From assembly GCA_951804945.1 (NCBI GenBank), contig OX638151.1, positions 40,362,001-40,426,000 on the forward strand: a DNA stretch of 64,000 bases, written 5' to 3'. This document shows, in pieces, positions 45,978-50,753 of the stretch. This DNA is from Podarcis cretensis (taxonomy: Eukaryota). A program made the position numbers and the translations under genes. Within the stretch, counting starts at the first letter, position 1, and each line of letters starts with the position of its first letter. Under the pieces are notes generated by a model. That model was not told where the DNA came from, made no database searches, and saw only the letters and a list, made by a program, of their open reading frames with translations.

Positions 45978-46823
45978 GGGGAAGGGAAGTGGCTCAGTGG
46001 TACAGCATCTGCTTTGCATGCAGAAGGTCCCTGGTTCAGTCCCTGACATCTCGGGGGGGGGGGGAGGTTATGCTTTATTGAGATTAAAAAGAAATAACAA
46101 ACATAAGGATTATCCAGAAGAAAGAAAAGAAAATGGTAATATTTGTTATTCCACATCACAATAAGTTCTTCTTGAGTTTCTGAAGGCTTTCCACCACCCC
46201 ATCCTGCATCTACCACTTAGTCTATCTAGTCTTTTGTTAATTTTCATCAATATTATATTCTCTTATAATTATCCACAGAAGTCATTCAAGGCCTGCCACT
46301 GACGTCATATTTTTACAGTAATCCTTAAGATATTTTTTGTACATGTCCCATTTCCTAATAAATGTTTGATCAGTATGACCTCTCAGTTTTTCTGTTATTT
46401 TTGCCAACTTGGCATATTCCAACAGTTTACTTTGCCACTCCAGATTTGTCAGAATTCTCTCTCCTTTCCAGTTCATAGCGATTAATATTCTTGCAGCTAC
46501 CATGGCATACAAGAATATTTCACTCGCACTTTTTGGTATGTCTGGGCCTAATATCCCCAGGAGGAAAGTCTCCGGTTTTTTTATGAAGGATACTTTGATC
46601 ATTCTTTTGAGCTCATTATAAATTACATCCCAAAATTCCTTTATTTTCTTACAGGTCCACCACATATGTAAAATTGAGCCTTCCGCTTCCCTGACATCTC
46701 TGGATAGGGCTGGGAATATCCTTTGTCTGAAGCCCTGGAGAGTCCTTGCCAGTCAGTGTATACAATACTATGTGAAATGGAGTAATGGTATGATTTAGGA
46801 TGTGTCAGCTTCCTGTGTTCCTA
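45978..46823 (+). mobile_element. Squam3-type SINE split by an L1 3' fragment
   Basis: Head ggctcagtggtacagcatctgctttgcatgcagaaggtccctggttcagtccctgacatctc resumes at 46701 and ends in cagcttcctgtgttccta. Confidence 0.85.
46053..46687 (-). mobile_element. 5'-truncated L1 (ORF2 C-terminus plus 3'UTR)
   Basis: ORF HMWWTCKKIKEFW..ETFLLGI..AARILIAMNWK..EWQSKLLEY (zinc-knuckle end of non-mammalian L1 ORF2). AATAAA at 46074-46079 (minus). 13-bp TSD tccctgacatctc at 46040-46052 and 46688-46700. Confidence 0.92.
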
Positions 46824-47663
46824 TGGAAGCAGAAACAGCTCTCCTCCTATTGGGAAAATGTCTGAAGCTTTCCTATTTTATATGCACACAGGAAGCCATG
46901 ATTAAAGTGTTTATAAAGTTTGCATTTTCTGTTCTCTCATTGCTGCCAGTAGTTCAGCAAAGATGCCACACAAACCCCTTAATAAATATCTGGGTATCTT
47001 TTTCCTGATGGTGTCAGTGCAAGTAATTCCCACGGTCCCACGCTGACACTTGAACGACAAATGGTCCAAACTCACAGCAATGTTAACATACAACAATTCC
47101 AGCTTCTGGGAAGGAAAAGTTTCCCATTTCAAGTGTGGCAAAATCCATTTGTCTCTAATTAGAAAAAGCAGAACCCACATGGCAGTAACCAATGTGCCAA
47201 GACAACTCATGAAAAATGGAGAAACATCAAAAAGGCAACAGAGTTGCATTTAAACTGATTTTTCTGAGGGAAAGCTGAGAAGAACTGAAGAGAAGCCAGT
47301 CTGGAGCAGCCAAAACAGTCTTGGGAACTGTCACATATGAAAATGACATTTGGAGAGGTGTGTCTATGCTTATGCAAGAAGCCTCCAAGCCAAGATAAGC
47401 TCTGAAAGGAAAGGAAAGGCAACAAGGCACAGTCTTCAGATCCCTGTAGGAAAGGTAAATACAATGAGCACAAATTAATGCACATCGGGGCAGAGGGAAA
47501 CCTTTACACAGATGCAGTCTGAATTGGCAAAGACTAACCAGGAAAGAGATCTTGGTGTTTATGGTGAATAGCCTCTTTTTTATTTTATTTTTATTTTGTA
47601 GAAGTGCATTATAAGATTGAACTGAATACCGGAGAATTAATGTACATAGTAACCAAAAGAATC

Positions 47664-49769
47664 TTTTTTTAAAATAAAATAATATTAATTAAATATTTTA
47701 AGGGTTACAAAAAACAAAAGTAAAAGTAATAACACCATATTAAACAAAAACAAAACAACACATCACAATAAGAAAAAAGGGGAAAAAAACAAAAACAAAA
47801 ACAAAAAACACAACTAATCTTCCCAACTTATCTTTCATTTGCTTGTTTCCTTGACCTCCTCACACCTCCCTTTTTTGTATTCTAATTCGATTAACTATTT
47901 CAGCAAATCCTTTCCATCTTTTCCAATTTTTGTTCTGTAATTTATCTCAATGTAATGTAACTTTACTTTCGCTCCTTTCACCATTTTTTAACCTTATTTT
48001 AACATTAAAACTAAAATACTTATATATGCTTAACTCCTTATAACATTTCTGCTAAATCCATAAAATATCAATCCACCATTTTTCTATCACTCATTAATTT
48101 TGCGATATTTCTATATATAAACTTTAAATTTTCCAATATTCTTCCATCAACTCCTCTCCCTGGTTTTGGATTCTGCCAGTCCTTTCCGTCAATTCCATAT
48201 AGTCCATCAACCTGGAGATCTTATGTCCGAGGCTCTTAACTCTTTTCCAGGTCCCTTCTGCAGATCTTCTTCATATTCTTTAATGCTAGAGAGCAAATCT
48301 CGAGAGAACTCCATCCTAACATTACTTTTATTCCTTCTGGACAGTTCAGCCAAATTTCCATAGTTGAAGCTAGAGTCTATACAGTGTTTCAGGACGTATT
48401 TCAAGACTCCTCCAAATCCAAAGGCCCCCAAAACTTCAATCTCCTTCAAATCCAAGTCCATGTCCCAAAAGTCAATTAATCCCTGGATAGAGAGATCTTT
48501 CCAACTTTCCTTCTTCAGTCCAACCAGGATCCAATCCTCAAAATCTGGCTTTTTCTAGATTCAATCATAAAAGGCCTCAATTTATAGTCCTCAATTTGCT
48601 TCTGTAGAACTAAGGATCCCGCTTGTATTATTTTAGGTTCAAAAACAACGACTTTCTCCTTTTCCTCCACCATTTGTTCTGCCAAGGTAGGTTCCTGTGC
48701 CAGGTCCTGAATTATTTCTGTGTTGGTGCTCACTTTTTGTCTCATGTTAGTCGCTTTCTGTTCCAAATTATCAATTTTAAAAGTCATGTCATCCATCTTT
48801 TTATGAATCTCTTCCAGCAAATAGTTTGTTTTACATAATGCAGTCAAAATAACTTCTCCTATCAACATTTTGAATGGTCCAAGGTCAATCTCTGGTTCTC
48901 AGAATCCTTATCTTGCAGCTGGAGACCTCCCAGTTACACTCCTATAACAATTTCAAAGGCTCCCTCTAGAGGGAAACAGTCCCCACTTGTATCAGTTCTT
49001 TCAAGCACAACTCAGGCATTAAACATAGTTTCGATTTTCAGTTACTTTTTCCTCCATTTTAAATGCAGAAGAGGACAATGGAAACAGTATCTTGCTCTTA
49101 TTTTAGCTAGCTGTCAAATCCGTTCTGTCAATAAACTTTCCCCAAGCGTCATCTGGCAGCCCGTTCCCAGGTTCAGAGCTGTGGTAATTTGATTTTCCCC
49201 TCACTCCTGCAGGCTTACTAAGTTCAAAATTTCCCCCCTCTTCACCTGCTTCCAAGGGGGGGGTTGTATTTTTAACCGATGGAGATTTAATCCTTTATCA
49301 AAAACTTTCAAAGACTTTAGCTTGTAACGTCTTTGCTTCAGTCTATTTACAAAAGCGGAAGGCGGACTTCCTGTTTATGACCTTCCTGCTTTGGGCGCCA
49401 AATTAAGGTACTTAAAGATCCAATTTTCCGTTCTACTCACGGGTAGTTGTTTAAAATCCAACTGCCCACAGGAAAAAGTCAGCGCTCTCCAGCAACAGCA
49501 ATGCGGCTTCACTTCGTGAAAGAAGCAGTCGATTCAAAGCACCGCGCCGCTCACCCCACGTCGCTCCGGATCCCCAAAACAGGGTTTCCCCGTGAGTAGG
49601 GGAGGCGCAAAAGGTGCCAGCCGAATCCCAGGTTCACAGGCTTCTTCCGCCTGTGATTTCAGTGGGTCCCCGCCTTCGCCGTGGCGGTCAGACCCTAATT
49701 TCCACGGAGTAAGTTCCTCCCGATCGGAAGAGCTCAGCCATTGCCGGAGGCGCCAACCCGGAAGTCCCC
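47664..49769 (-). mobile_element. Non-autonomous L1 derivative (5'UTR + ORF1-like + ORF2 terminal remnant + 3'UTR), 2106 bp
   Basis: 16-bp perfect TSD agtaaccaaaagaatc (47648-47663, 49770-49785), 5' end GGGGACTTCCGG, CpG-rich 5'UTR, coiled-coil ORF, ORF2-end remnant LMDYMELTERTGRIQNQGEELMEEYWK, T-rich 3'UTR and short A tail. Confidence 0.88.
48207..48868 (-). pseudogene. Shortened L1 ORF1p-like frame (~220 codons) with an apparent frameshift near 48550
   Basis: Heptad-rich segment LEEIHKKMDDMTFKIDNLEQKATNMRQKVSTNTEIIQDL at the ORF1 position. The second frame is open from ~48555 to the stop at 48207. Confidence 0.65.
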
Positions 49770-50753
49770 AGTAACCAAAAGAATCAAGTAGGAAAAGATA
49801 GCTGGTGGATAGCTGAATAAAAGCATCAACTCAGTATGCAACACTGAGGGTTGGGGGCGGGAATTTCTGTGCTATAGATTATTTCAGAAAAGGACTAAAT
49901 ACAGAATAGGCATTATCATATGTCTGAAATTGAGTTTCCCATAAATGTCCAGTTGGCTGCTGTGAGAACAGGATGCTGGACTAGATAGGCTATTGGCCTG
50001 ATCCAGCAGTCTCTTCTTCTTAAGAAATGCCATGTACTGTTCTACTTATCCCACTTTGAAAAGGATGTCAGGACTGTAAATTGTGAAGAGAAGGGGAACC
50101 ACAACAGTGCAGCAGTTTGGACACCTTCCCCAGGTCTTAATGCTGAAATGTTTAGTGTTAGGTGACTCAGGGGGGAAAAAAAGACAAGTATGGAGAAGTA
50201 TTGGGGGGGGGGATGAAAATGTATGGAGAGAATTCTCTCTTTCTTTGATAATACTTGAGGCCCTCTAATAAACCGTATTGGCAGTAGTTTGAGGACAGAT
50301 CTGCCTTCTCAAGTATTCTATCATGAAACTCATAATTAACCTGTGGAATGCTTGGCCTTTAGATGTGGTGGCTGCCTCTGATTAAAATGGTTTTTGATGG
50401 GGATTAAATCAGGGATGGTGAACTTTATGGACTATAATTCCCATCACTCCGACTGTTGGCCATGTTTGCTGGGACTGAGAGGAGTTGGGAGTCAAATCGC
50501 ACGTGGAAGGCCATGGGTTCCCCTCCCCTGTGTTAGGCAAACCCATGGAGGTTAGGTTTATTAGTGGCTATTAGCCACAATACCTAACTGGAACCTCTGT
50601 GTTCAGATGCAACATATCACCAAATAGTTATTGATGCAGAAGGTTTTTGCCGTGCTATTGTTCTTGTGAGCTTTCATGAAGCCACTGAGGGAAAGAGTGA
50701 TCCATAAAGGCATTCATCCTAGTATTCCTAAATGAACTTCATAAGAGACTTTG

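Follow-up and report, generated by a model that had tools for sequence, protein, structure and literature searches.

The element at positions 47664-49769 (minus strand) of the window, a 64,000-nucleotide stretch of the Podarcis cretensis genome (contig OX638151.1, positions 40,362,001 to 40,426,000), is a decayed member of a family of L1 elements without ORF2 that is long-lived and divided into several lineages. The family is likely copied in trans, and its ORF was probably kept open for translation of the RNA rather than for the sequence of the protein. Across the family, the reading frame is protected while constraint on its amino acids is weak.

The anatomy of the locus copy agreed with the original prediction, which had been made without database searches. 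An exact 16-bp target site duplication (TSD; AGTAACCAAAAGAATC) flanks the element as a whole, at 49770-49785 on its 5' side and at 47648-47663 on its 3' side, and the minus-strand element begins with an intact GGGGACTTCCGG at 49769. The 5'UTR, given as ~900 bp, measured 901 nt (48869-49769, minus strand); it is L1 derived, as judged by identity to parental L1 5'UTRs, and presumably acts as an internal promoter. The expected frame of ~220 codons is an internally deleted ORF1 (48868-48207, minus strand) whose start corresponds to an internal Met codon in the parental ORF1 and which encodes 220 aa in intact copies; its one frameshift is a private 1-bp deletion near 48523. The abrupt join placed at 48210 is indeed the start of ORF2-derived sequence. 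At this family-defining junction (48207-48212, minus strand), the ORF1 tail (to 48212) is fused to the ORF2 end (from 48210), and the ORF's TGA stop (48209-48207) is contributed by out-of-frame ORF2 sequence. A remnant of the last ~42 ORF2 codons follows (48084-48210, minus strand), frameshifted, not kept open, and collinear with autonomous L1 ends; its peptide aligns without gaps to the L1 end at 46282-46665, with L, Y, L, T, and W in register as described. The remainder (47664-48083, minus strand) is an L1-derived 3'UTR (74-75% identity to parental L1 3' ends, ~550 nt) with a U-rich tract and a short A tail, which in the locus copy consists of seven A's; the poly(A)-signal position of that copy reads AATTAA. 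The loss of endonuclease (EN) and reverse transcriptase (RT) was also borne out, as no EN/RT coding sequence lies between the TSDs.

The junction is not unique to this locus, and the ORF is not without similarity to L1 ORF1p, two points on which the original prediction depended. Genome-wide, the 21-nt junction pattern had 761 exact matches (reversed control, 0), a lower bound on copy number. A 501-nt junction query returned 4026 candidates, and all 40 of the hits scored, the locus copy included, spanned the junction at 97-100%. The copies were expected to carry different TSDs, and a TSD of at least 10 nt was found in 37 of the 41 both-ended copies versus 1/41 mismatched flank pairs; of the 37, two come from a single duplicated locus and one is a simple repeat. 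The locus copy is among the four that the script missed. Segmental duplication could account for L051 and L053, which share one TSD and constitute a duplicated locus. As an account of the family, such duplication and a single deletion after insertion are both refuted by the 761 genome-wide junctions, the differing TSDs, and the presence of 5'-truncated copies typical of reverse transcription, and we regard the probability of either as negligible.

An intact ORF was present in 51 of 71 aligned copies (3 of 74 were skipped for incomplete span, and 10 duplicate or nested loci were excluded), with the ATG in 70/71 and the TGA in 71/71. The family comprises at least 12 subfamilies, separated by as much as ~0.4 substitutions per site; in none of them has a stop or a frameshift become fixed. 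Public contigs labeled as eight organisms contained 0.28-0.66 of the sampled element words. Four sequencing runs from four organisms covered all 30 bins, with the 126-nt deletion point bridged by one contig and the 51-nt point by another; the 48210 junction was spanned by none of the 32 contig pieces listed (of 10,852).

Some copies showed further rearrangement. L1s are nested within three of the 30 loci of the junction search, one of them young and full length (L041:1233-7378; G000:C19) and the others 5'-truncated ORF2 ends (L042:1671-3240 and L043:1693-3514). Two 5'-truncated copies with the same breakpoint (L106 and L108; G000:C1:139887 and 215831) abut telomere-like TTAGGG arrays near the contig end, and at L044, L062, L233, and L235, family or parental 5' ends adjoin, or are duplicated beside, other copies (tandem or clustered insertions). 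In part of subfamily C (L067, L071, and L072), the tail contains a second ORF2 end and 3'UTR from another L1 after the first remnant. The second ORF2 ends, together with the divergence of subfamily A and B tails after ~230 nt, suggest 3'-end swapping via template switching.

On sequence comparison, the family evidently descends from a single founder that arose by deletions from a full-length L1 lineage of the same genome. Autonomous ORF2 ends sharing the family's nucleotides were sought (410 matches), and this search led to L190 (G000:C1:17117400-17124600), which is 75% identical to the family over 948 columns of 5'UTR, ~75% identical at the 3' end, and 37% identical in ORF1 protein (E 8e-26). 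L190 is a full-length member of the parental lineage in which the 5' 4.4 kb lie in the opposite orientation to the 3' end, as twin priming predicts. Among 20 further parental-lineage loci, 17 contain ORF1s longer than 300 aa (most 382-400 aa) and none contains an unbroken ORF2; at most of the 20, the 5'UTRs of full-length parental L1s are 72-78% identical to that of the family over long stretches. The parental ORF1s at L224-L243 differ from one another by entire heptads of the coiled coil, and they repeat a C-terminal motif, RASDRRSPDRG; the family ORF terminates inside the first of these repeats. Alignment of the family profile to the parental ORF1 profile by hhalign gave a probability of 100 (E 5.8e-43, 48% identity), and the family is monophyletic (support 0.999) within the parental L1 ORF1 lineage. 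The parental ORF1 model has the order coil, RRM-like, CTD-like, and its ten best Foldseek matches were all human L1ORF1p (E 3e-6 to 1.5e-4), with low TM-scores and a low-confidence model (mean pLDDT, 55). Because of the profile match and the parental fold search, we consider the family ORF a homologue of L1 ORF1p.

Two other L1s were rejected as parents. The L1 at 46282-46690, situated 1 kb away, is a 5'-truncated 3' end on the minus strand with an open ORF2 terminus; BLASTN did not match it to the element, and it thus belongs to a different lineage. The young full-length L1 nested in L041 is 23% identical in ORF1 and 67% identical in the 5'UTR. Its lineage is full length, younger, and more distant from the family, with many copies at 97-99% ORF1 identity, and L041-type L1s are candidate helpers of the family.

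The founder deletions comprise ~157-160 nt that included the ORF1 start, 9 nt of coil sequence, 126 nt in the RRM, 51 nt in the CTD, and the whole stretch from the ORF1 tail through to the last ~42 ORF2 codons. The N-terminal deletion point (48869-48871, minus strand) was placed by nucleotide alignments to L237, L229, and L232 and by protein alignment; with it went the parental ORF1 start codon and ~50 N-terminal codons. The in-frame 126-nt deletion (42 aa, parental residues 219-260; point at 48406-48408, minus strand) affects the second half of the RRM and spans the predicted strand 228-233 and helix 237-249 in parental numbering. The in-frame 51-nt deletion (17 aa, parental residues 304-320; point at 48277-48279, minus strand) lies in the CTD. 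The N-terminal loss and the 42-aa and 17-aa deletions were found in 9/9 representatives aligned. The ORF had been read as short and diverged. It is short, but the cause is a set of discrete internal deletions and not divergence only. No microhomology or splice signature common to all deletions was found; the 126-nt, 51-nt, and ORF2 deletions have no GT-AG ends, and the N-terminal deletion is ambiguous in this respect.

Direct searches with the family ORF retrieved little. Pfam, recommended for detecting Transposase_22, gave only generic coiled-coil matches below cutoff; Transposase_22 was also missed in a full-length L1 ORF1 of the same genome and genome-wide, and the Pfam negative is thus uninformative. 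A search of 5.8 billion proteins retrieved nothing at E≤0.01 among 358 candidates, and PDB sequence searches with autonomous ORF1 retrieved coiled coils only. In the family protein model (pLDDT, 44), which rests on a shallow alignment and says little about folding, residues 3-70 are predicted to be helical and form the sole stretch above pLDDT 50.

Conservation of the frame itself is pronounced. Across 12 subfamilies, subfamily-majority stops numbered zero versus ~26 expected over 0.94 substitutions per site on well-supported internal branches, while the same tally for the other five frames gave 33 and 35 (the other sense frames), 7, 19, and 13. Because this tally uses intact copies, we also consider a sample free of that bias, 70 of the 761 junction copies, of which 47 span the ORF and the remainder are cut on the 5' side. 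No subfamily-fixed disablement was present in this sample. The ORF was intact in 22 of the 47 full-span copies, and 2 of 49 disabling events were recurrent: a CGA codon (R190) was affected in five copies, which belong to three reference groups, and two unrelated copies have a 7-nt deletion in common. Stops accounted for 12/269 singleton variants versus 0/180 variants in at least three copies (p=0.002), with one stop found in two copies. Shared indels were in frame in 3/3 cases within the ORF versus 3/30 in the UTR and tail (p=0.004), and further subfamily indels of 21 nt and 9 nt are in frame as well.

An open frame might instead reflect sampling or arise as a by-product of RNA-level constraint, such as a purine-rich sense strand or an element near the stop. 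Subfamilies C to F were initially found by protein search, as this explanation would have it. Synonymous divergence also reaches a minimum at codons 198-220 (0.157 versus 0.55-0.88 elsewhere), partly through the junction search, and fitted sense-strand exchange rates in the family ORF are strongly asymmetric (C-T 14.8, far above A-G at 3.4). Neither sampling nor RNA-level constraint, however, fits the junction-only sample without subfamily-fixed disablement, the many stops in the other sense frames, or the confinement of indel phase bias to the ORF, and we judge this explanation very improbable.

The start ATG is retained in 12/12 subfamilies, which is weak evidence alone because Met137 is likewise retained in 12/12. 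The adjoining ORF2-remnant frame is unprotected, with a commonest open length of 5 to 38 codons, depending on the subfamily; reinitiation via the overlapping TGATG at the junction was rejected, as this downstream mini-frame is not kept. Fixed stops are absent near the C terminus too, including at the CpG-prone CGA codon 190, where a stop would extend the 3'UTR by just ~90 nt. Because late stops are also absent, simple nonsense-mediated decay is a poor fit; more probably, the requirement concerns association with ribosomes or termination at a set position.

In contrast to the frame, the protein sequence showed little sign of selection. The original prediction of dN/dS<1 was mostly not realized: pooled over five disjoint subfamily contrasts, dN/dS was 0.85 (confidence interval [CI], 0.66-1.12) versus a neutral within-subfamily baseline of 0.96 (0.75-1.23), and between family and parent it was 1.0-1.07. 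Contrasts among parental ORF1s gave 0.19-0.32, and those within the L041 lineage, a second L1 lineage, gave 0.13-0.25; all of these values are pairwise, not branch specific. Single contrasts did fall below 1 (A-D1, 0.56 [0.37-0.87]; A-G2, 0.52 [0.35-0.76]), and the upper bound was below 1 in 7/21 net contrasts, which are mutually nonindependent. The coiled coil gave 0.75 (0.53-1.07), and N:S in shared versus singleton variants gave p=0.07. Given the sub-1 contrasts, the coil value, and the N:S comparison, weak protein constraint is possible. A neutral simulation in which stops alone are forbidden yielded 34.7±5.0 invariant residues versus 41 observed and also reproduced exchange severity and codon-position variability; the observed invariant residues and conservative exchanges were reached in 13% and 14.5% of simulations, respectively.

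The principal alternative is that the truncated protein is functional: while it is being translated, its coil would assemble together with the ORF1p that intact L1s supply and thereby tether the half-L1 RNA to L1 particles, or it would act as a dominant-negative competitor. If few residues mattered, dN/dS would be only slightly below 1, yet the full length would be required. This possibility draws on the several deep contrasts at ~0.5-0.6 with CIs below 1, the coil value, the predicted helix at residues 3-70, and the fact that late stops were never fixed. Against it, the RRM and CTD, described in PMC5381506 as the conserved RNA-binding parts of vertebrate ORF1p, are incomplete, with half of the former and part of the latter deleted. 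Prolines also intrude into the coil, the NLRIRA motif is disrupted, and the data fit the stop-forbidden neutral simulation. Moreover, a coil-only function would tolerate stops beyond about residue 100. We favor translation to the junction stop, which we hold to be probable, over a functional coil-only protein, which we consider rather unlikely. If the protein were functional and evolving fast, positive and purifying selection acting together could likewise average to a dN/dS near 1, in keeping with the strictly kept frame and mean values of 0.85-1.0; the invariant residues and conservative exchanges are not in excess of the neutral simulation, however, and such a mixture is improbable.

Translation of the RNA, the preferred reading, could act as follows. 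The retained 5'UTR would drive transcription by Pol II, and ribosomes would read the RNA from the conserved internal ATG as far as the junction stop. Translation would keep the RNA stable and ribosome bound, and the ribosome-bound RNA would capture ORF2p and functional ORF1p of autonomous L1s in trans, with insertion through target-primed reverse transcription. Mobilization in trans by L1 ORF2p is likely, being consistent with the anatomy of the element and with the presence of young, full-length L1 copies in this genome. As for the truncated protein, RNA binding of the kind shown by ORF1p is predicted to be absent. Pol II transcripts are described as requiring a supply of ORF1p in addition to ORF2p (PMC2666806), and L1 RNAs encoding N-truncated ORF1p are described as relying on ORF1p in trans (PMC5860796). 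We tentatively propose that the ORF is a translation handle: across about one substitution per site of master-lineage evolution, selection would have kept 220 codons open between a fixed ATG and stop, whatever those codons encode.

How non-L1 RNAs overcome the cis-preference of L1 is a long-standing question. If the translation-handle proposal is true, the family would offer evidence from nature that the passage of ribosomes itself makes an RNA eligible for capture by L1 proteins in trans, and it would represent a stable intermediate between LINEs and noncoding, SINE-like parasites. The family extends half-L1 elements beyond mammals and separates ORF retention from protein retention, which are usually coupled. 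Its open but near-neutral frame is a ready reporter for distinguishing translation, RNA stability, and the coiled coil in trans-mobilization. In repeat annotation, copies of this kind would be taken for L1 fragments and masked, or else called orphan genes.

Among known systems, the closest is HAL1 (half-L1) of mammals, reportedly described by Smit (1999) and by Bao and Jurka (2010). The latter are said to have found that the ORF1p of mammalian HAL1s evolves faster and is under purifying selection as a cis-acting protein, and to have argued that ORF1p is needed. The original prediction of a HAL1-like family stands insofar as this is an amplified, ORF2-less L1 derivative with ORF1p homology. An ORF1p-encoding HAL1 under clear purifying selection is unsupported, because the RRM is reduced by half, the CTD is shortened, and pooled dN/dS is neutral-like. 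Mammalian HAL1 is described as a nonautonomous L1 derivative with a 5'UTR, an ORF1-derived frame, and an L1 3' end but without ORF2, in accounts whose HAL1 hosts are mammals only (PMC5753468, PMC13756887, PMC8535693, PMC4161310). Like these elements, the lizard family has an L1-derived 5'UTR, ORF1 frame, and 3' end, arose independently from a local L1, lost the EN and RT of ORF2, and was amplified with a common junction, TSDs, and A tails. Unlike them, it encodes an ORF1p that appears to evolve near neutrally and lacks the N terminus, one half of the RRM, and a segment of the CTD. As the complete ORF1p of HAL1 (coiled coil, RRM, and CTD) is absent, we file the family as a HAL1-like variant and not as a HAL1 member. 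No squamate HAL1 or ORF1-only L1 was found in the main texts of the openly searchable literature; the accessible text of PMC5381506 makes no mention of HAL1 or "nonautonomous."

The family also resembles the human L1 5'UTR/ORF1 SpIREs, described as having lost the ORF1 start and using a downstream Met, with a truncated ORF1p and a need for ORF1p in trans; SpIREs, however, are splice products in which ORF2 remains, and they are evolutionary dead ends (PMC5860796). In contrast, the lizard family retains a whole 5'UTR, was amplified through many subfamilies, and has 126-nt, 51-nt, and ORF2 deletions without GT-AG ends. Processed pseudogenes and SVA are Pol II RNAs mobilized in trans by L1, with TSDs and A tails. 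The family shares these hallmarks and, probably, the reliance on L1 proteins in trans; unlike processed pseudogenes and SVA, it is wholly L1 derived, has its own presumed promoter, and has maintained an open frame over long master lineages.
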